Positions 266-25,433 of a DNA stretch of 27,847 nt are shown piece after piece. Position 1 is the stretch's first letter, and every line of letters begins with the position of its first letter. The notes below the pieces were generated by a model. That model had not been told where the DNA came from. It saw only the letters and a program-made list of their open reading frames with translations, and ran no database searches. This DNA comes from a virus (Duplodnaviria; Caudoviricetes): positions 1 to 27,847 of IMG/VR virus record IMGVR_UViG_3300037195_000714; one strand, 5' to 3'. Made by a program: the position numbers and the translations under genes.

Positions 266-1582
266 TTAGCCGAAGAAGAAAGTTGTTGTCCTACCTTTTA
301 ACCCATGAACAGCACAAGCTAAAGCGTCAACATAATCGTCATGGCCACCATCAGAGTGGTGCAACTTAAGCTGTCCAGAAGCTGCAACCTCGTACCGAAA
401 ATCTTTCAACTCATAGATAAGTTTAGTAATATTAGGGTAAACTATCTTCTTCTGTTCCATTAGTACCTTTAGGTTAGAGAATATATCTTGCTTAGTCTTA
501 ATAGTAAAGTTTAACCCTACCACTATATCAGTTGGAGTATTACTTTGCCCGTATCCCGTATTCTTGTAAACAGGTTTCCTGTTAAAGTCTCGTGCAAGAA
601 TGTCTACTACGCCAGCACCTAGACCCGTCTGGTCACAACAAATCTTCTTAAACTTAAACTTCTGGTGTAAGAACTTAATATAGTCAATAGCTTGGTCCAT
701 AGTATTCTTCTTTAACTCTTTAACAAATACTACTCTATGAGGTTCACCTTTCTCTACTACTACAAAAGCTGAGGAGTCTTCACCCATACGAGCAAAGTCT
801 GCTCCAAGATAATACTGTTTATCAGCGTTTACTACTGAACCAGTTTCGTCCAATAAATCGTAATCAGATATACAATCTTCTACTAACTTATAAGGAAAAT
901 AAGCGTCCTCATCAGGTATAAACTCTGCCTCATACTCAGTCCGAAACTGGAGAGAAGAACATTGACTCTTTTGTTCATCAATAAACTCTTGTGAGAAGTG
1001 GCCAACCGCCACAGCATCTTCCCAAGTGTATCTATGTCCAACATAGTTACTATCAATGAATGAACGATAGAAATGGTTCATACCAAACGGTGTGCTAATC
1101 TTAATAATCTTACCTTTAGTTGCTGCAACCATCGGCGTTACAACTTGGTTAATAATATCATCCTTAACAAACGCTGCCTCTTCAACAATCAATACGTTAG
1201 CAGTAAGTCCTCTAATATTATCACCTGTGTCACCACAAGGGTAAGCTGATACCCTACACCCATTCTTCATCAACATCTGTCGTTGTGTAAACGATTGTAC
1301 TTCAGATTGAATTGGAGAACTTTTAATAAAGTTAGTAATCTTTTGAAATAATTCACCGGCTTGTCTATCAGTTGGTCCAACAATAACTATATGTCCCCCT
1401 GAATTCTTCAATGCTTCAATAATAGAAAGGATAGCGATAGTCATCGACTTCCCTGTTTGTCTACAGAATACGCCTACTACTCGTTGAGAGTTCATACAAT
1501 CGTACAGAAAAACTTGTTGATAATTATATAATTCTATGTTAAACAGATTCTTTACTACCTTCTTAAGACTCTTCTTCGTCAT
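266..1582 (-). CDS. terL: Terminase large subunit
   Basis: LYNYQ adenine-binding motif, Walker A CRQTGKS, Walker B LIVEEAA, motif III ISTP, RNase H-like nuclease GADFAR...DQTGLG...HDDYVDALA. Confidence 0.95.
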   Translation of the reverse strand: MTKKSLKKVVKNLFNIELYNYQQVFLYDCMNSQRVVGVFCRQTGKSMTIAILSIIEALKNSGGHIVIVGPTDRQAGELFQKITNFIKSSPIQSEVQSFTQRQMLMKNGCRVSAYPCGDTGDNIRGLTANVLIVEEAAFVKDDIINQVVTPMVAATKGKIIKISTPFGMNHFYRSFIDSNYVGHRYTWEDAVAVGHFSQEFIDEQKSQCSSLQFRTEYEAEFIPDEDAYFPYKLVEDCISDYDLLDETGSVVNADKQYYLGADFARMGEDSSAFVVVEKGEPHRVVFVKELKKNTMDQAIDYIKFLHQKFKFKKICCDQTGLGAGVVDILARDFNRKPVYKNTGYGQSNTPTDIVVGLNFTIKTKQDIFSNLKVLMEQKKIVYPNITKLIYELKDFRYEVAASGQLKLHHSDGGHDDYVDALACAVHGLKGRTTTFFFG

Positions 1583-1586
1583 AATA

Positions 1587-1685
1587 AATTCCCCCAGCCC
1601 TGTGGTATGCTTTGTTCTTCCTTAAAGGAGTTAGGGAAACCACCACAGGTTTACCTGTCTTGCTGACAAGTGCTGTCTAGGGTTT
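1587..1685 (-). ncRNA. Structured RNA motif, copy 1 (leader of terL)
   Basis: Homologous to 15016-15106 (+), with covarying stems; ends 4 nt before the terL ATG. Confidence 0.6.
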
Positions 1686-1796
1686 TTCTTCCTCCTCGTT
1701 CTCGTCAAACATAAACTGTCTACCACAAAATGTGCACCAATGATAATCTCTAAAAAAGTTATCAAAGTCACACCCGCAATTATTACACTTTGTCAT
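1677..1796 (-). CDS. Small zinc-ribbon protein, 39 aa (MTKCNNCGCDFDNFFRDYHWCTFCGRQFMFDENEEEEKP)
   Basis: Translated by hand (not in the ORF track); CxxC...CxxC; start overlaps the end of the upstream gene. Confidence 0.65.
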   Translation of the reverse strand: MTKCNNCGCDFDNFFRDYHWCTFCGRQFMFDENEEEEKP

Positions 1797-2172
1797 CTTC
1801 TATCTCACACTCATCAAACATCTTAGTCCAATCAACTATATGATGAACATTCTCAGTCTTAATCTTTTCGCCATGTACGAGTTTGTGCCAATTCATTAAA
1901 GAATTAGCATAAGCTATTCTTTGAGCAGGATGTAAATTTTCTTCAATCGTTTGTAAATATTTTAAGATTTGAAATGAACTACATTCAGACTTTTCCATCA
2001 TACGAACTAATCGTTCTACCTTATGTTTAGTAAATCCGTTTTTTTTAGCCCATCTAATTTCTTGTCCAATACTTTTACGAAGAGATTTAACGCTGCCCCC
2101 TTTTGATTGTATCACAAATCTTTCTTTCTTTGACCTTTGATTGAGTGGTATTAGATTTCCTTCGTTTGCCAT
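1783..2172 (-). CDS. Putative terminase small subunit
   Basis: N-terminal ANEGNLIP..QRS...IQSKGG motif common in terS-like phage proteins; just upstream of terL; GAGGAG Shine-Dalgarno (SD). Confidence 0.55.
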   Translation of the reverse strand: MANEGNLIPLNQRSKKERFVIQSKGGSVKSLRKSIGQEIRWAKKNGFTKHKVERLVRMMEKSECSSFQILKYLQTIEENLHPAQRIAYANSLMNWHKLVHGEKIKTENVHHIVDWTKMFDECEIEDDKV

Positions 2173-4547: not shown

Positions 4548-7165
4548 TCTGTTAATAATGCGTTTTTGTTAAACAATGGCTTAAATCTGTCCAAAAATAG
4601 GCTCATTTTGTTTTTAATGAAAAGATCAATATATTTTTGATAGTTAACTTCCATTTCTTTTGGCAATTTTGTATTTTCGTTCAACATTACCGCCTCGACA
4701 GATTTTCCTTTAAACGAGTGTGGATATTTCTGCAAAATGTTTACATAACACATACCTCCTTTGTAGTTTGCTCGACTAAAATCTGTTCCAAGATATTTGT
4801 TTGAATACATCATTGCTGTTACATGTTGTGGAGTAACTTTGTATTCGTTTAATTCTCTCGAAATTTGTTTAGTGATTAGCAACTGATTATACGTTAGATT
4901 TTTGATAGCTTCTTCAGCTTCGGTTATTGAATATTTAAGACTTTTGTTATCTTCGGAATTTATAACATCAATCAATAGCTTTTTTAGTATAGGACGCATA
5001 GCAGCAGGTGTATCTTTTTTAACCAGATCTATACCACGTCCGTACGATTTATCCGAGTTAAACGTTTTGCCTTTGATATATTTTCCATAGCCATAGTATT
5101 TCTTTTTAGCTTTAGACATTAACAGTTTTTGAAAAAATGTTTCAAAGTCCATTTCTATATATTTGTTGTCTAATTCGTAATATTCTTTGATAAAGTCTCC
5201 TATTTTGTCGTTTATTTCGTCTTTGACGCCAAACATTCGTTTAAGAACTGTGTCGTAATCTCTATCATCTTTAATGTGTATAAATGCACTATCTGTGTCA
5301 GCATAAATAGATGTACAATCTTCGATTTCATCAGCTAGAGTTAACGATTTTTTAACCATAACTCTAGCTAAATGTGTAATACAACGAGCACAGTTAATCG
5401 AATATAACCTAAAGTATTTATATTTTGAAACACCATATATTCCATTAATAACAGTTTTGATAGCGTTGTATTTGACTGGTAGAGTGACATCATCGCTGTC
5501 CTCCATTTGTTTACTTAGATCATCTTTCATAAACATTAGCTTATCAACTACGATTGTCATTAATCCGCGTCTATCTTTACTCGTATAATATAAATTGTCA
5601 ATATTGATACAGTTGTCTTTTTTGTAGTCAGTTATAGTTTCGTAGCTAATATTGAACTGTCGTATTAGATTTGGATAAAGAGATTTAAAATCTACCACTC
5701 CGACATAATTATATATTTCTGCTATAGGTTTCATAACATACGCTCCTTCTAATTCTTCAGAAGGATTTTCTTTTTTAGAAGGAAATACATAATCTTTGCT
5801 AAAGTTGCAAAGAATGAAGAAATCTATTATTTTAGAATTATATAAACTCCATTTGATATTAAACGTACTCATTAGTTGTTTAAACGATAAAAGATAGTTA
5901 ACCATACCTACATACTCTTCCAATTTTCTACATAATTCTACATCTTGTATATTATATTCGTATAATTTGAGAACATCTTCACGCCATAATGTAGCTGGAC
6001 CACGCGAATCATGAACTTTTTGTCCTAAATTTAAGAATTCACCTAAGTAATCTAAATTGAATCGGTTTGGTTTGTCTAGAGAATAGATGAAGAATTTATC
6101 TTTAGCATATTTCATAGCGTCGATAACATCTACGCCTGAGAATTCTAGTTTACGTTCGTCGTTTCTATCGCTAGCTTCTTTAATATCGTTTCTTATTTTG
6201 CCAACTGGCGAATAATTGTTAGGGTCTAGTCCTAACATTTTAGCTCTGTTAACTAAATATATATTATCAAAGCCGGAAATATTAAAGCCGGTGACCACGT
6301 TAGATTCGCTGAATACCTTCATAAATGCTTTAATCATATCAGCTTCTTTTTCGTATACAATTACATCATCTTTTCCTTTAAGAGAGCTCAAATCTTGACC
6401 GTCGTTTAATATCATAAACTTTGTTTCGAAGTTGTTTTTATATACAATTGATATAATTCGTCCTGGAGTATTTATAACGTCTACCGAACTATCTGTTTCA
6501 ATGTCATAAGTCATATAATTGATTTCTTCTTTTTTGATTGGTTCGAAGTAATCATAATAGTCGATGATGAATCTGTAATTTTCTCGCAGATCTCTTTCAA
6601 AAACATTAGGGTCTTTGTAATCATAATTATATAATTTTTTGCAGGGAACTCCGGTCAAAGTATACTTTTCAACTTGTTCTGGTGGACATTCGATCCAGCA
6701 ATAATCCTCATAAAAGAATCTAGCTTTAAACATTATATGATTAGCCATAAATATTATAACTTTAGAATATTGGTTGTCCATACTAACATTGTATATTTTC
6801 ATATTGTTTATGTTAGCGAAATATTTTCTCATAGTTATTTCGCAAAGGAATGTCATATATTTACGTTTATAATCAATTAGCAAATCATATTTAAGACGAC
6901 TAGTTATATACTTTTCTCTAAATTTTTTATATATTTCCATACCTATCAAATCTTGGTCTAGATATAATATAGGACATTTAATATTAGTGTTGTCTAGAGA
7001 GAGTTGAGTTAATATAACATGTGGTTTATTGTTTTCTATTACTGAGTAATCGATTTCCCCATTTAATAGTATATAATCACCTTCCTTAATATCAAACAAA
7101 GCTATTAGTATTTTTCTTTCTTCAGCAGGTAATTCTTTCTTAGTTATAAAAACCACATTACTCAT
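4538..7165 (-). CDS. polB: Family B DNA polymerase with 3'-5' exonuclease and an extra N-terminal region
   Basis: ExoI YDIETD, ExoII GFNISGFD, ExoIII YNIQD; polymerase motifs DFKSLYP, KTVINGIYG, YADTDS, KKKYYG. Confidence 0.96.
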   Translation of the reverse strand: MSNVVFITKKELPAEERKILIALFDIKEGDYILLNGEIDYSVIENNKPHVILTQLSLDNTNIKCPILYLDQDLIGMEIYKKFREKYITSRLKYDLLIDYKRKYMTFLCEITMRKYFANINNMKIYNVSMDNQYSKVIIFMANHIMFKARFFYEDYCWIECPPEQVEKYTLTGVPCKKLYNYDYKDPNVFERDLRENYRFIIDYYDYFEPIKKEEINYMTYDIETDSSVDVINTPGRIISIVYKNNFETKFMILNDGQDLSSLKGKDDVIVYEKEADMIKAFMKVFSESNVVTGFNISGFDNIYLVNRAKMLGLDPNNYSPVGKIRNDIKEASDRNDERKLEFSGVDVIDAMKYAKDKFFIYSLDKPNRFNLDYLGEFLNLGQKVHDSRGPATLWREDVLKLYEYNIQDVELCRKLEEYVGMVNYLLSFKQLMSTFNIKWSLYNSKIIDFFILCNFSKDYVFPSKKENPSEELEGAYVMKPIAEIYNYVGVVDFKSLYPNLIRQFNISYETITDYKKDNCINIDNLYYTSKDRRGLMTIVVDKLMFMKDDLSKQMEDSDDVTLPVKYNAIKTVINGIYGVSKYKYFRLYSINCARCITHLARVMVKKSLTLADEIEDCTSIYADTDSAFIHIKDDRDYDTVLKRMFGVKDEINDKIGDFIKEYYELDNKYIEMDFETFFQKLLMSKAKKKYYGYGKYIKGKTFNSDKSYGRGIDLVKKDTPAAMRPILKKLLIDVINSEDNKSLKYSITEAEEAIKNLTYNQLLITKQISRELNEYKVTPQHVTAMMYSNKYLGTDFSRANYKGGMCYVNILQKYPHSFKGKSVEAVMLNENTKLPKEMEVNYQKYIDLFIKNKMSLFLDRFKPLFNKNALLTEWM

Positions 7166-8052
7166 TTTAAATGTAAACTCCCTATATTTATTTTAAACTT
7201 TATATCAGCCGCTTTAAATATATCCCTGTTTAAGATTTTAGCTGTGTATGTTAATCCTGCTATATCATAAGGTAAATAGTTTTTTATATCAGAGCTACGC
7301 ATATTCACAATAAAATATAGAGTACCTAATCTGTATAAACATTGAACCGAGGTTATACAGGCGTTTAGAGTATAAACATATTGTCTACTTTCGTTAATAT
7401 GTTGGTCATAAATCTTTTTTTTAGTTAAAATTTCGTTTTTCATTCCATATACGATAGCATCATATTCGTGTAATCGTTTATTAAATTCAACGTAATCTAT
7501 TTGGTTAAAGGCTTCAGCTTGTTTAAGATCAAATTCTAATTCTGCATTTATTATTTCTTTCCCTATAAATTTGTTATGTTTGTGTTTGTGCGTTATTCTG
7601 TTTAATATAGATTCATATACAAGGGATAATTTATTAGTTTCCCATGTTTTGATGAATGATTTCATAGTTTTTATACACTCTGATATAGATTTACTAGTAT
7701 CTATTTTAACGATGGGTATAGATGTATTATTGAATTCATCTTCATAAACCTTATATAATTTATTAATGTCACTTTCTTTTATATCTTTTTCATCGTGTTT
7801 TAGGATTCTTTTGATAGTTTCTTCTTTTCCGCATTTCAGGTAAAATATAATAGCTTTAGATGCTAGTTTATCATTTATTTTAGCATATTCAGAGTATGGT
7901 AGAGGTCTTTTCCTGTATTTCCCGTAACAAGTTGAGGTTAAAGTGAATCTATTGCATACAGGGTATATATAGCCTGTAGCTTTGTGGAATTCAGCAATTA
8001 GCGTATCTTTTCCTTGTTTGTCAATTCCGTCAAATATTAAAATTGGTTTCAT
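7162..8052 (-). CDS. Fusion of an N-terminal thymidylate-kinase-like dNMP kinase and a C-terminal compact thymidylate synthase / dCMP-hydroxymethylase-like domain
   Basis: P-loop FDGIDKQGKDT plus NRF; then SRQ, ACITSVQ (catalytic Cys), MRSSD....LPYD and IGSLH matching ThyA-fold motifs. Confidence 0.8.
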   Translation of the reverse strand: MKPILIFDGIDKQGKDTLIAEFHKATGYIYPVCNRFTLTSTCYGKYRKRPLPYSEYAKINDKLASKAIIFYLKCGKEETIKRILKHDEKDIKESDINKLYKVYEDEFNNTSIPIVKIDTSKSISECIKTMKSFIKTWETNKLSLVYESILNRITHKHKHNKFIGKEIINAELEFDLKQAEAFNQIDYVEFNKRLHEYDAIVYGMKNEILTKKKIYDQHINESRQYVYTLNACITSVQCLYRLGTLYFIVNMRSSDIKNYLPYDIAGLTYTAKILNRDIFKAADIKFKINIGSLHLK

Positions 8053-8924
8053 TTTTTGTTTTCCTTGTCTTGTACAGATTCTGGTATTCCCATTTCTGTT
8101 CGTTTTCTCGCATATAAGAAGTTATGTGGATTGAACTTAAATAGTTTTTCGTGATTAGCGTCGGGTTGGTATAATCTCGTGTTTCTGGCTACAGGCGAGT
8201 TGATAAAGTGGCATCCTTTGTTGCATTGAAGAGAGACTGTTTGTGATATTTCAGGGATAACCTCTGCGATGCAATCTCTTATCTTCTGAGCTATTAAATT
8301 ATCGGTATAGGGTTGGACCATCTGACATTTTCGTTGGTTTATGAAATTAATAGCATCCTTCAGATTCATTCCTACATAATAATAGTAGGTATGATTCCTA
8401 TTCAATACATAACGAGCATCCATAACTGACACATCTTTAGAATCTACCATATCTGAATACAACTTCTTAGCCTCTCTTGATACTCTTTCATACTCATCTT
8501 TAAACTTAGAACTTTTAATAGAATTAGGTATCAATACATCATCATGTCTTAAATCCCTATCTCCACTACACAAAGCATGTATACTAAAAAAATATCTATG
8601 CCTCAATAAATGAGAAATTTCTATATGAGTCAATCCCTCTAACAAAAAAACGAAGGTCAAACTTTCCATAGAATTTGTCAACGTCTTCTTTTCTAACAAC
8701 AATTTAAAAGTCGAATCAATCTCTTCTTGAGACAACTTCTCTGCAGGATTCTCTTTCCAAGTACTCCTAATCATACGAGTACACAACTCTCTAAAGTCAT
8801 GCATTGGATGAGATACCATCGTTACATTGATAGCTTCCTGTTCTGTTTTAAATTGTGTCTTTGGTTCTTCAAAAAATTTAAGTTTCATTGGAAACTCTTG
8901 TATTTCCATATAGTCTGAGTTCAT
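8049..8924 (-). CDS. thyX: Divergent FAD-dependent thymidylate synthase (ThyX-like)
   Basis: SMESLTFVFLLEG, HLLRHR, DARYVL and MNLK...FINQR motifs; altered signature RHRYFFSIHALCSGDR. Confidence 0.8.
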   Translation of the reverse strand: MNSDYMEIQEFPMKLKFFEEPKTQFKTEQEAINVTMVSHPMHDFRELCTRMIRSTWKENPAEKLSQEEIDSTFKLLLEKKTLTNSMESLTFVFLLEGLTHIEISHLLRHRYFFSIHALCSGDRDLRHDDVLIPNSIKSSKFKDEYERVSREAKKLYSDMVDSKDVSVMDARYVLNRNHTYYYYVGMNLKDAINFINQRKCQMVQPYTDNLIAQKIRDCIAEVIPEISQTVSLQCNKGCHFINSPVARNTRLYQPDANHEKLFKFNPHNFLYARKRTEMGIPESVQDKENKK

Positions 8925-9421
8925 TTTATTCTCCTTATTTGCATTTTAACATCGTTGTATATTTTAGTTGCGTCTTTGTTTATTTTTCTCATGTATTCAT
9001 TCCCTAAATTAGCCTCACGACTTGAATAACAAATAACAGATAATATATCAGCTAATTTAACTATTAAAGAGATTTTAGTTTTCTGCTCTTCAAATTCTTT
9101 AAATAGTCGTTGCTCATGTTCAGTCAATAATTCTTTAGCTGCTATAAATTCACAATCCTGAATAGCTTTTTTAATCGGTTTAAAGGCTTTCTTGACATTG
9201 TGAGGAATATCGCTGACTAATATTTCTGGAATATCGTGTACAATAGCCATCTCTATAGCTGTAGTTTTATCTTCTTTACTAAGTTTAAACTCATCGCATA
9301 ATATTTTAGTAAAAGCTACAACGAAATAACTATGTTCAGCTACTGTTTCTTTGTGTATAGTTGGAGTATTGTTAAATCTAACAAGATCTCCTAATTTATA
9401 TAATTCAGTATATAAATTCAT
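8921..9421 (-). CDS. HD-domain 5'-deoxynucleotidase (YfbR/DatZ-like)
   Basis: RF...ETVAEHS...IVHDIPE...SDIP...VKLAD pattern. Confidence 0.9.
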   Translation of the reverse strand: MNLYTELYKLGDLVRFNNTPTIHKETVAEHSYFVVAFTKILCDEFKLSKEDKTTAIEMAIVHDIPEILVSDIPHNVKKAFKPIKKAIQDCEFIAAKELLTEHEQRLFKEFEEQKTKISLIVKLADILSVICYSSREANLGNEYMRKINKDATKIYNDVKMQIRRIK

Positions 9422-9861
9422 TCTATATCTCCAATATAATTTTCATACGTCGGATTAATAACCCACTCTTTAAGCTCTTCCAATGATTGAAGAACTTTTA
9501 TACCAGCTTGAGCAAGCATTAGGTTAAACTTTTTCCCTTTAAGTTCCGTTGCTAAAAAAACTATAGGAGTTCCAACTGCGTATGAATAACCAATTTCAAA
9601 CATAGTTCCAGTGTCTTTGCCGTCTGTTATAGCCACTATTTTATCGCTGTATTTGATAGCTCTGATATTTTGTTTAAACACTTTTTGTCTATCTTTTAGC
9701 GAAGCTTTTGGTGGAAGATGACATTCATGCATAGGAGAAAATACTTTATACTTAGCATCTTCTAATATTTTTTTGACATCTTTAATTTTTTGAACTTCTT
9801 TTTCGTTGAAAAAAGGTCCTGCCAGATAAATCGATTCTTTGAATAATTTTGTTTGAGTCAT
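9418..9861 (-). CDS. Nucleoside 2-deoxyribosyltransferase (NDT) family nucleotide N-glycosidase (Rcl/DNPH1, MilB-like)
   Basis: IYLAGPFF, VFSP, DTGTMFEIGY (catalytic Glu), NLML. Confidence 0.9.
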   Translation of the reverse strand: MTQTKLFKESIYLAGPFFNEKEVQKIKDVKKILEDAKYKVFSPMHECHLPPKASLKDRQKVFKQNIRAIKYSDKIVAITDGKDTGTMFEIGYSYAVGTPIVFLATELKGKKFNLMLAQAGIKVLQSLEELKEWVINPTYENYIGDIE

Positions 9862-13188: not shown

Positions 13189-13304
13189 CTTTTATATTTT
13201 GTAATAATTATTATACAAAAGTTATATCATTTTTGTATAGTTTAGTTACAAAAAAGTCATAATGCTGAGTTTGTTTATAAATGGTATATACTTCAGAATA
13301 TAAA

Positions 13305-13316
13305 CCTTTATAAAGG
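13305..13316 (+). promoter_or_regulatory. TATA box (palindromic CCTTTATAAAGG) of the plus-strand early operon
   Basis: Followed by hairpin TATGCC-TAAT-GGCATA (13335-13350), SD GGAGA and ATG 13364. Confidence 0.6.
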
Positions 13317-13363
13317 CTAATAATATATAATATATATGCCTAATGGCATAGGAGATACTAAAA

Positions 13364-13459
13364 ATGGGAAAATACGAACAAAAAACCGAACAGCTTCTAG
13401 TAGAAGCTCTAGCAAGACATATCTATAACTTTGAAGACACTAGGAGATATACAAAATGA
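13364..13459 (+). CDS. Micro-protein, 31 aa (MGKYEQKTEQLLVEALARHIYNFEDTRRYTK)
   Basis: AGGAGA SD; ATGA overlap with the next ORF. Confidence 0.6.
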   Translation: MGKYEQKTEQLLVEALARHIYNFEDTRRYTK

Positions 13460-13566
13460 AAACAATAACAGAAGAATTAAGTATAAGACTTAATAAACTA
13501 AGGTCTGAATTTCCAGAAGAGACATATATCTCTATAAGAGATTCTATCTTAGAGGTGGAAAAATGA
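13456..13566 (+). CDS. Micro-protein, 36 aa (MKTITEELSIRLNKLRSEFPEETYISIRDSILEVEK)
   Basis: AGGAGA SD; ATGA overlaps at both ends. Confidence 0.6.
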   Translation: MKTITEELSIRLNKLRSEFPEETYISIRDSILEVEK

Positions 13567-13721
13567 AAAACATACAATATATAAAAATAGCAGAGATTAT
13601 CTCTAGACATCCAGAGACTAGTACAGAGCTATTATACGACCTAGCAGCATACTTTGTAGAGGATAATCCAAACTTCTCTGCAAAGAGATTTATTACAGCT
13701 TGTGGAGTAGTAGAATGTTAG
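13563..13721 (+). CDS. Small viral protein, 52 aa, with a DNPNF...RF..AC motif
   Basis: GAGGTG SD; MKNIQYIKIAEII...LAAYFVEDNPNFSAKRFITACG resembles a small uncharacterised phage family (recalled, not searched). Confidence 0.7.
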   Translation: MKNIQYIKIAEIISRHPETSTELLYDLAAYFVEDNPNFSAKRFITACGVVEC

Positions 13722-13897
13722 AAATTACTAAAGAACAATTTTTAGCGTTTGAAAAGGTTAGAATCTCTGGTAAGACAAATATGTTTGATATTAGACAGGT
13801 AGAAATTCTATCTAGTCTTAAACCATATCAAATTAAAGAAATTATAAAAGGGTATATATTACTTAAAAGTAAGTATGGAGGTATTGAAAATGACTAA
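13715..13897 (+). CDS. DUF5049-like small protein
   Basis: EQFLAFEKVRISGKTNMFD motif; start moved to ATG 13715 (GGAG SD). Confidence 0.7.
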   Translation: MLEITKEQFLAFEKVRISGKTNMFDIRQVEILSSLKPYQIKEIIKGYILLKSKYGGIEND

Positions 13898-14069
13898 TTG
13901 GGATGAAGTAAATAGAAAGAAAAGAAAAGAAATTACTCTTGGACAATCGTTAAACCAAGCATTAAATTTTCTTTTAGAAACAAATCAAGGTATAACAGAA
14001 GAAAGCTATAAGTTAAGAGCTAAGGCTTTCTTTAAATGGAATACAGAGTTACAAGAGGAGTTACTATGA
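13890..14069 (+). CDS. Hypothetical protein, paralog A (MTNWDE...TELQEELL)
   Basis: GGAGGT SD; clear paralog at 14389-14553. Confidence 0.8.
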   Translation: MTNWDEVNRKKRKEITLGQSLNQALNFLLETNQGITEESYKLRAKAFFKWNTELQEELL

Positions 14070-14191
14070 AAATAAATACTTGCCAATATTGTGCAGGAGA
14101 ATTAAGACGAAATGGTAATAGTGAAACTGAGTATCTATGTAAGAATTGCTTTGCAACTTTTGATATAGATGACATACCAAGGAAATACTAA
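14066..14191 (+). CDS. Zinc-ribbon micro-protein, 41 aa (MKINTCQYCAGELRRNGNSETEYLCKNCFATFDIDDIPRKY)
   Basis: CxxC...CxxC; GAGGAG SD; ATGA overlap. Confidence 0.7.
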   Translation: MKINTCQYCAGELRRNGNSETEYLCKNCFATFDIDDIPRKY

Positions 14192-14239
14192 GATGGGAAC
14201 AGATATTTTAGGTGAAGCAAAAATAAGAGAGGCATTAAA

Positions 14240-14392
14240 ATGAATTACAATCCCAAATGTGTTGGCAAGGATGCCACACACCCTAATTCTAGGGTTTGGG
14301 AAAATCAAAACAATGGGAATGTTTTGGTGTGCGAAGATTGTCACACTATCCATTGGGTGAAAAAGAAACGAAAGAGGAAAAAACAAAAATGA
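14240..14392 (+). CDS. Cys/His micro-protein with a basic tail, 50 aa
   Basis: MNYNPKC...H...VCEDCHTIHWVKKKRKRKKQK; GAGG SD; ATGA overlap with the next ORF. Confidence 0.55.
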   Translation: MNYNPKCVGKDATHPNSRVWENQNNGNVLVCEDCHTIHWVKKKRKRKKQK

Positions 14393-14553
14393 CAAACTGG
14401 GACGAGATCAATGCAAAGAAGCAAAAAGCAATAACTTTAGGCCAAGCAATGAACTTAGCAGCAGATTATTCTGGCCTAACTGAAGAAATGTATAAACATA
14501 AAACAAGACAATTTTTTAAATGGATGACAGAGTTGCAAGAGGAGTTGTTATGA
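14389..14553 (+). CDS. Hypothetical protein, paralog B (MTNWDE...TELQEELL)
   Basis: Paralog of 13890-14069; start moved to ATG 14389. Confidence 0.8.
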   Translation: MTNWDEINAKKQKAITLGQAMNLAADYSGLTEEMYKHKTRQFFKWMTELQEELL

Positions 14554-14633
14554 GTAGAGAAGTTAAAAGAGAGTGTACGATTTTTGAAACCGGTAGATGT
14601 AATTGTAAGGATTGTATAGAAGATGACTCATAA
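14550..14633 (+). CDS. Cys-rich micro-protein, 27 aa (MSREVKRECTIFETGRCNCKDCIEDDS)
   Basis: GAGGAG SD; ATGA overlap; four Cys. Confidence 0.5.
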   Translation: MSREVKRECTIFETGRCNCKDCIEDDS

Positions 14634-14721
14634 CGATTCTTGCCCTATCGGTTTCGGCGATTGTCCGGATTGTATTTATTATATAGGCTATTGTTGTGAA
14701 TATAATGGAGAAGAAGAATGA
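14623..14721 (+). CDS. Cys-rich micro-protein, 32 aa (MTHNDSCPIGFGDCPDCIYYIGYCCEYNGEEE)
   Basis: Overlaps the previous ORF; five Cys. Confidence 0.5.
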   Translation: MTHNDSCPIGFGDCPDCIYYIGYCCEYNGEEE

Positions 14722-14755
14722 CAGACATAAAAAGAATGATTGAAAAAAATGAATA

Positions 14756-14944
14756 ATGGATATGAGTAAAACGGGTGCAATGTTTTGGAACATAACACCT
14801 AAAGGAAAATCAATGTATTTTGCAGAGTTAGTATTTTGTGTGCTTGAACAGTACGGGACGCGGTACGAACTTTCATTCGACAATTACATGGCAGAGACCA
14901 GCTGGTTGATAGACTTAGCCGAACAAATTGGTAAAGGAGAGTAG
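14756..14944 (+). CDS. Hypothetical protein
   Basis: 62-aa ORF ending the plus-strand array. Confidence 0.55.
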   Translation: MDMSKTGAMFWNITPKGKSMYFAELVFCVLEQYGTRYELSFDNYMAETSWLIDLAEQIGKGE

Positions 14945-15015
14945 TAACATTTTAAGTTCGTTAAAATAAAGTATCTCCAAAATTACTTTTAGCTACTCTT
15001 CGCCAAAAACAACAT

Positions 15016-15106
15016 AAACCCTAAACAGACTTGTACATGCAATGCAAGTAGCACCTGTGATGATTTCCACCGGCGAAAGCACAGAACACACAGGTCTGGG
15101 GGAAAT
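15016..15106 (+). ncRNA. Structured RNA motif, copy 2
   Basis: Homologous to 1587-1685 (-), with covarying stems. Confidence 0.6.
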
Positions 15107-15122
15107 AATGTTATTTAAATAG
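15103..15122 (+). promoter_or_regulatory. Late-type promoter motif pointing into a non-coding region
   Basis: AAATAATGTTATTTAAATAG identical to the copies at 245-264 and 25414-25433. Confidence 0.6.
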
Positions 15123-15144
15123 AACAAGACCCTTACTATAATTA

Positions 15145-15390
15145 GAAGGACCACACCTGAAATTGTGGGATGTACGACAATTGAGCCATAGCAGAAATCA
15201 TCTGTATAGGTGCTAAAATAATAATAACAGAGACCTACCAAAGTCAATGTATAACCGCAACAGGATTTGTATCCGTTGAGTGTTATATGTGATTTTATCA
15301 ATTCTTACAAAAAACAAATACAAGTATACAAATCAAGAGTGTCAACGGTATAATATAGACTGGCCATATACCAATAGCTACCGCCAAAAA
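15145..15390 (+). ncRNA. Candidate structured non-coding RNA
   Basis: Downstream of the promoter motif; only very short ATG-initiated frames; hairpins at 15151-15168, 15184-15213, 15240-15296, 15347-15372. Confidence 0.4.
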
Positions 15391-16068: not shown

Positions 16069-16085
16069 CTATTTAAATATTATTA
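16069..16085 (-). promoter_or_regulatory. Variant late-type promoter motif TAATAATATTTAAATAG
   Basis: Shares the TATTTAAATAG core; intergenic, upstream of ATG 16015. Confidence 0.5.
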
Positions 16086-16111
16086 TAGCCAAATTCACTA
16101 CATAGTGATAA

Positions 16112-25364: not shown

Positions 25365-25411
25365 CTTAACAATAATAAGTCCTGCTTGGACATTATATTA
25401 ATACCTCCTTG

Positions 25412-25433
25412 TACTATTTAAATAACATTATTT
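25412..25433 (-). promoter_or_regulatory. Late-type promoter motif upstream of the tail genes
   Basis: 22-bp identity with 243-264. Confidence 0.65.

Follow-up and report, generated by a model that had tools for sequence, protein, structure and literature searches.

We report a folded RNA element that occurs twice in a virus genome, is real and more than a chance resemblance, and represents an uncatalogued RNA family. Judging from its predicted fold and from its variants in other viruses, we give about an even chance to the proposal that it is an RNA cassette which the host tRNA-splicing endonuclease (EndA) excises as a circle. The window, i.e., the whole stretch of 27,847 nucleotides that was analysed, comes from a tailed virus; its record is linear and 72% complete, with genes for a terminase, a family B polymerase, an ERCC4 nuclease, ThyX and tail proteins. 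The initial annotation placed the two copies at 1685-1587 on the minus strand and at 15016-15106 on the plus strand; the positions and sequences are as it gave them, and so is the location of the G-run of copy 1, 13-9 nt before the terL ATG at 1582. Should the proposed cuts prove real, the tRNA-splicing machinery of the host would serve viruses for producing a conserved circular RNA, and the message would be remodelled in front of the packaging genes; if the element cleaves by itself, it is a new ribozyme class. The element is short, nine natural variants with compensatory changes are available, and exact cut sites are predicted (Table 1).

The outermost part of the fold is a 4-bp helix between the 5' block and the G-run. 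Next come a bulge of 3 nt (A-R-A) and an inner stem, which has 4 bp (5 bp in L202). Further in there are an arm of variable length (19-63 nt), a joint rich in A, a 6-bp stem that is conserved, and a loop that measures 29-79 nt and opens with a pyrimidine strand. The three-way junction proposed in the initial annotation is present; the 4-bp helix and the 3-nt bulge below it, which use the same G-run, had been missed. The GCAA loops to which it drew attention are not conserved: the third arm, which varies in length, is absent in one variant.

Table 1. Positions of the element, its parts and the neighbouring features in the window (predicted items follow from the proposed excision)
Feature	Position	Strand	Remark
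Terminase large subunit (terL)	266..1582	-	Gene directly behind copy 1
Putative terminase small subunit (terS)	1783..2172	-	Assigned by position; homologues precede terL in relatives
39-codon Cys-rich ORF	1677..1796	-	Between terS and copy 1; stop codon inside the 5' block of the element
Copy 1 of the element	1587..1685	-	99 nt; 4 nt between its end and the terL ATG
4-bp central helix H, 5' strand	1679..1682	-	Pairs with 1594-1591
3-nt bulge	1676..1678	-	A-R-A in 9/9 members
Inner 4-bp stem, copy 1	1675-1672 with 1598-1595	-	
Variable hairpin arm, copy 1	1671-1653	-	Followed by the A-rich joint
Conserved 6-bp stem, copy 1	1649-1644 with 1604-1599	-	Variable insert within
Pyrimidine loop strand	1634..1640	-	Pairs with the G-run and next purines (pseudoknot of the initial annotation)
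G-run and second A-R-W trinucleotide	1588..1595	-	At the terL Shine-Dalgarno position
Predicted 5' cut, copy 1	1677/1676	-	Right behind the stop codon of the small ORF
Predicted 3' cut, copy 1	1589/1588	-	6 nt would remain up to the terL ATG
Predicted excised and circularised part, copy 1	1589..1676	-	88 nt
Copy 2 of the element	15016..15106	+	91 nt; at the end of the plus-strand small-gene block
Predicted cuts, copy 2	15024/15025, 15104/15105	+	Would give an 80-nt circle
BRE/TATA-like 20-mer	15103..15122	+	Abuts copy 2
BRE/TATA-like motif, further copies	245-264, 16070-16087, 25408-25433	-	

The central helix has exactly 4 bp and is paired in 36/36 cells, with a double change in L202 and a change from U-G to U-A in L166; the inner helix is 100% paired in the nine members, and the bulge is exactly 3 nt long in all nine, L202 with its extra inner pair included. 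In a model-fitted alignment of the nine, which leans toward the structure and whose fixed stems were partly selected by the search patterns, 95.7% of cells pair and 5/21 pairs show double changes, against 36-48% of cells paired in slid controls. The compensatory change in the closing stem reported initially, from C-G to A-U, is confirmed. In the two fixed inner stems, all six changes on one side of a pair lead to G-U and none to A-C, so the transcribed strand is favoured. Comparison with shuffled sequences also agrees with the earlier view of an RNA structured on that strand: z is -3.4 on the transcribed and -1.0 on the other strand for copy 1, and weaker, -1.75 and -0.84, for copy 2.

The loop strand and the G-run region covary, with changes from U-A to C-G in three members and from C-G to G-C in L202. 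The pseudoknot of the initial annotation therefore stands as a covarying contact, but as written for copy 1 it contained a U-U mismatch, and it shares two G positions with the 4-bp helix, so that the two cannot both form fully. In L202 the base that covaries with the loop strand also covaries with the 5' block.

The nine distinct full-length members are copies 1 and 2, L086, L090, L135, L138, L166, L193 and L202, counted after dropping repeats as well as L100 and L108, which are other assemblies of the same virus. Three partial members are L014, cut by a contig end, and two from DNA contigs of the sequencing runs X4, X6 and X7. Pattern scans returned members in 1/26 (L014), 6/39, 3/50, 5/58 and 4/109 stretches, the last with a mid-plus-3' pattern and all already known; two other viral patterns gave none (0/1 and 0/39 stretches). 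The nine members are related, and 7/9 were fetched by patterns fixing parts of the core. Two members fetched by the 3' block alone also bear the 5' block, which was absent from the pattern, and three fetched by the 5' block alone bear the remaining element. The window has 0 Rfam matches at E<=5, and seven homologue loci have seven weak ones at E<=10, none of them on the element; the earlier statement that it belongs to no known family is upheld. Among 67 pattern matches in cellular genomes there were 0 members, which is a weak negative because the pattern fits 5/9 members. A blastn search of cultured phages and of plasmids returned no member, and a model search of five whole virus records found 0/5; one of the five was the L014 record, in which the contig end truncates the copy. 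Neither this family nor any EndA-cut viral RNA is described in the literature considered, in which two large catalogues were covered in part. One core motif and the carrier contig numbers gave no match in seven supplementary files of PMC10690425; the family could be an unnamed entry in that catalogue or in bioRxiv 10.64898/2026.10.21.760802.

The carriers form two groups, larger viruses like that of the window and viruses of 11-13 kb whose terL is 29-32% identical to that of the window; across this distance a 40-nt core of the element remains 78-95% identical. All members lie in archaeal-looking viruses, mostly just 5' of the terminase genes, and their positions concentrate either upstream of terL or where the early gene block ends. 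Presence is sporadic. A model search found the element in 3/80 small-virus terL loci, all three known before (these are the best 80 of 261 relatives of an alignment built from carriers; in 38/80 the sequence upstream of terL exceeds 1300 nt, and 31 are near-complete), and in 0/13 large-virus loci related to the terL of the window. Relative to terS, the element is placed differently in the window, G001 and L014. Pieces from runs X6 and X7, which belong to two studies, have 1-2 differences from copy 1 over 39-56 nt, variable insert included, with different flanks and the variable arm absent; we infer that the two X6 pieces belong to one molecule. That such a nearly identical copy has other flanks points to horizontal spread, and the sporadic presence fits a dispensable mobile cassette, not an essential terminase control. 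Relatives show no enrichment of joined-exon "empty sites" (19, against 23-44 in shuffled sequences). This puts reverse splicing into a fixed empty site out of favour and suggests that the unit travels as DNA; most likely the cassette moves between viruses in this form, together with short exon bits. In a 12-kb virus (L460:2550-3190), a GC-rich, gene-poor stretch of about 600 nt with short repeats lies between the element and the terminase cluster.

The geometry of the outer part is the inner half of the archaeal bulge-helix-bulge motif. The EndA signal is described as a 4-bp helix flanked by 3-nt bulges, with relaxed HBh' forms cut by lenient enzymes (excerpts of PMC4090602); a strict EndA requires the full motif (PMC7714728, in part). 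The cut separates the second bulge base from the third (PMC2738675, PMC12397907, both in part), and the excised introns become circular (PMC7714728); the only EndA-spliced archaeal messages named in the covered part of PMC7714728 are cbf5 and HVO_1309. In minimum-energy folds the combination of helix, bulge and inner helix occurs in 9/9 members, compared with 6/1960 random stretches of the same viruses, and A-R-x on both sides occurs in none of these six. It persists in 8/9 members with 5-nt flanks and in 7/9 with 12-nt flanks.

The proposed mechanism is as follows. In the precursor, the 5' strand would hold the G-run in the 4-bp helix and hide the Shine-Dalgarno position of the next gene. A lenient EndA would cut after the second nucleotide of each A-R-x trinucleotide, and the released inner part of 80-168 nt would probably be ligated into a circle. 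Its 7-nt junction loop (the G-run plus the first intron base), now freed from the 5' strand, would pair with the pyrimidine loop strand. The precursor helix and the product contact would thus be two stages rather than two states of a switch, which would explain why both partners covary with the same G. The message would keep a short scar, or acquire a new 5' end 2-6 nt before the AUG, so that the cassette would be harmless or the next gene would depend on splicing. A U-A-R triplet, serving as the upstream stop codon in copy 1 and L135, directly precedes the predicted 5' cuts. In 6/9 members the predicted 3' cut is followed after 2-6 nt by the AUG of a real ORF.

As for the circle, the core cells of the loop strand are paired in 45/45 cases with the circular junction and in 43/45 with the linear tail, a margin of two cells, and the junction pair that favours the circle never varies and proves nothing alone. 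The two covarying pairs of the loop strand are both internal to the predicted intron, and each of the two pairs involving exon bases is disrupted in 2/9 members; in the partial member from run X4 the tail likewise mismatches the loop strand. Copy 2 speaks against the circle, its linear tail making 6 Watson-Crick pairs and the circular junction 5. An outer exon-exon helix receives no support: own flanks are no better than swapped ones (mean -0.71 vs -0.76 kcal/mol, p 0.53), and the helix is present in 1/9 constrained folds, with the first outer pair possible in 8/9. The element therefore has no strict hBHBh' motif, only the relaxed HBh' form (as defined in the excerpts of PMC4090602), and a lenient enzyme would be needed. 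We think that a self-serving or decoy role of the circle is likelier than essential control of the terminase. It is tempting to go further and propose a protein-free mobile circular RNA whose loop-loop form becomes active only once circular and whose catalytic or decoy core favours spread between unrelated viruses; we consider this extension doubtful.

Twister and HDV-like self-cleaving ribozymes have a compact conserved core, variable arms, a pseudoknot and a patchy presence in viruses, and the element is like them in all these respects; its helix order and catalytic consensus differ from theirs, and no Rfam ribozyme model matches it. A new class of self-cleaving ribozyme, whose core would cut itself, probably near the 5' bulge, after which the loop strand would take the G-run, is in our opinion improbable. 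The patchy spread, the two copies in one genome, the invariant core with free arms, the multi-stem junction and the pseudoknot match the criteria of section 17 of PMC10085705, where, however, ten candidates chosen by such criteria failed to cleave; moreover, self-cleavage leaves the exact geometry of 4 bp and 3 nt unexplained. Among the functions offered in the initial annotation, the processing element came closest, with a host protein enzyme fitting better than self-cleavage. That annotation also suggested riboswitch-like control of terL. Such a translational switch (a riboswitch or a protein-bound operator) would hide the ribosome-binding site of the first packaging genes by alternating between the pseudoknot and the 4-bp helix. 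A real ORF does have its AUG 8-12 nt past the first G in 6/9 full members and in L014, the position of the G-run is that of GGAG-type sites in other window genes, both pairings covary, and the clustering of carriers upstream of terL or at the end of the early block would suit it. Yet both supported pairings bury the G-run, so neither frees the ribosome site. No AUG is found there in L086, L193 and the X4 member, and the ATG behind copy 2 opens just 4 codons and belongs to a promoter-like motif. The downstream genes also differ: in the same genome zone, the next gene is terL in 2/9 members and a small ORF in 4/9, with no real ORF in 3/9. Absence from 77/80 and 13/13 terminase relatives, together with the lack of members among the cellular matches, weakens the claim further, and we regard a switch as unlikely.

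An element resembling exoribonuclease-resistant RNA (xrRNA) would let a 5'-to-3' nuclease strip the 5' strand of the helix, whereupon the pseudoknot would close, block the enzyme and protect the packaging message. The three-way junction, the loop-to-3'-tail pairing, the mutually exclusive pairings and the frequent location upstream of ORFs are shared with class 1 and plant-virus xrRNAs and with co-degradational folding, as far as PMC8374639 was covered. According to the same source, xrRNAs have a continuous ring of 15-16 nt around the 5' strand, which the element lacks, and a joint of 0-1 nt instead of an A-rich one of 3-5 nt; there is no sequence match, and the element occurs in DNA viruses that look archaeal. 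An insert whose length varies greatly breaks the ring path (the stem loop has 29-79 nt), the tail pairing is lost at exon-side bases, the block would leave the ribosome site paired, and some members have no downstream gene; we hold this explanation to be very unlikely. Smaller still is the chance we allow to a DNA-level site (a single-stranded transposon end, a cassette recombination site or a packaging signal) that merely resembles RNA. It would account for the position between a stop and a start codon, the change of flanks at the edges and the nearness of terminase genes, but the element is always oriented with local transcription, its covariation is of the pseudoknot type, no recombinase is tied to it, and a packaging signal could not be absent from most relatives. 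The patchy presence likewise makes the packaging-related RNA of the initial annotation unlikely. Further candidates were dropped. Read-through or a +1 frameshift in the 5' block is one of them, since only in copy 1, L086, L135 and perhaps L202 does the stop share its frame with a sizeable ORF upstream. The kink-turn, the attC site, SRP Alu and the phi29-type packaging RNA, compared by their general features, disagree with the element on inspection or in view of its patchy presence.

Returning to excision by EndA, the nearest precedents are archaeal mRNA introns, in cbf5 of Crenarchaeota and in the 5' UTR of Haloferax HVO_1309 (PMC2738675 and PMC7714728, as far as covered). Like them, the element has a 4-bp helix and a 3-nt bulge at the boundary, lies outside tRNA, has a predicted circular product, and is located just before or between coding sequences; its predicted intron is within the size range of archaeal tRNA introns, 11-175 nt (PMC2738675, in part). 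Unlike them, it is viral, forms one sequence family at many unrelated insertion places, has no supported outer helix, and contains a predicted intron with a conserved core and tertiary pairing; its splicing is predicted. The circular SRP RNA of Thermoproteus is an example of a functional circle (PMC4731332, in part). As with that RNA, the functional structure of the element would become complete only once EndA had cut and the ends were ligated, and the joint would fall in an important loop; the element is far smaller, viral and sporadic and has no match to SRP models. In its presumed working it is closest to EndA introns and to this circular RNA, but, as it lacks the strict motif and its splicing is predicted, we do not file it as a proven EndA intron.

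The host appears archaeal from the sequence features. Among the cultured-virus matches listed for terL, the lowest E-value belongs to a haloarchaeal virus; the ERCC4 family matches in just the four archaea of 14 control genomes. The BRE/TATA-like 20-mer is found repeatedly in the window, and records G001 and G003 have it at orthologous places. In the non-coding parts of the 31 near-complete small viruses (12-kb group), archaeal TATA boxes number 98 against 34 in shuffled sequences, and sigma-70 boxes are not enriched. Against an archaeal host, one small-virus carrier contig is filed under a genome labelled Parcubacteria bacterium. The four-copy motif is a putative late promoter, two of its copies being at places orthologous in G001. 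No tRNA gene surrounds the element: none was found in the window or in 14 loci.

Several observations concern the surroundings of the copies. The putative terS has no Pfam match. In the 13 terL relatives the Cys-rich ORF was not seen directly before terL. The first three residues of this ORF are identical to those of terL, and the first nine bases nearly so (window positions 1587-1604 and 1783-1796, minus strand); the terL start may thus have been duplicated by an insertion made up of the ORF and the element. The gene that comes next has a conserved structured leader at 222-45 (minus strand), behind the promoter-like motif after terL. An anti-Shine-Dalgarno-like octamer opens this leader and is identical in the window, G001, G003, L030 and L039; the first hairpin of the leader shows a compensatory change between the window and G003. 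The strands at the hairpin base are complementary to the two ends of the element, which may be chance. Behind the motif after copy 2, the stretch 15145-15290 (plus strand) is ORF-poor and moderately structured (z -2.0 to -2.5) and is a possible late non-coding RNA; among the fetched loci it has a homologue only in the same virus. The plus-strand small-gene block that carries copy 2 (about 13300-15300) is inverted relative to G001, and it includes a pair of paralogous small ORFs (13890-14069 and 14389-14553) with a 42-nt repeat in common, of which G001 has one homologue. Elsewhere in the window, a minus-strand cluster at 7162-9861 comprises genes for a thymidylate kinase-like protein, ThyX, a YfbR-like HD protein and a nucleoside deoxyribosyltransferase, and could produce a modified DNA base.
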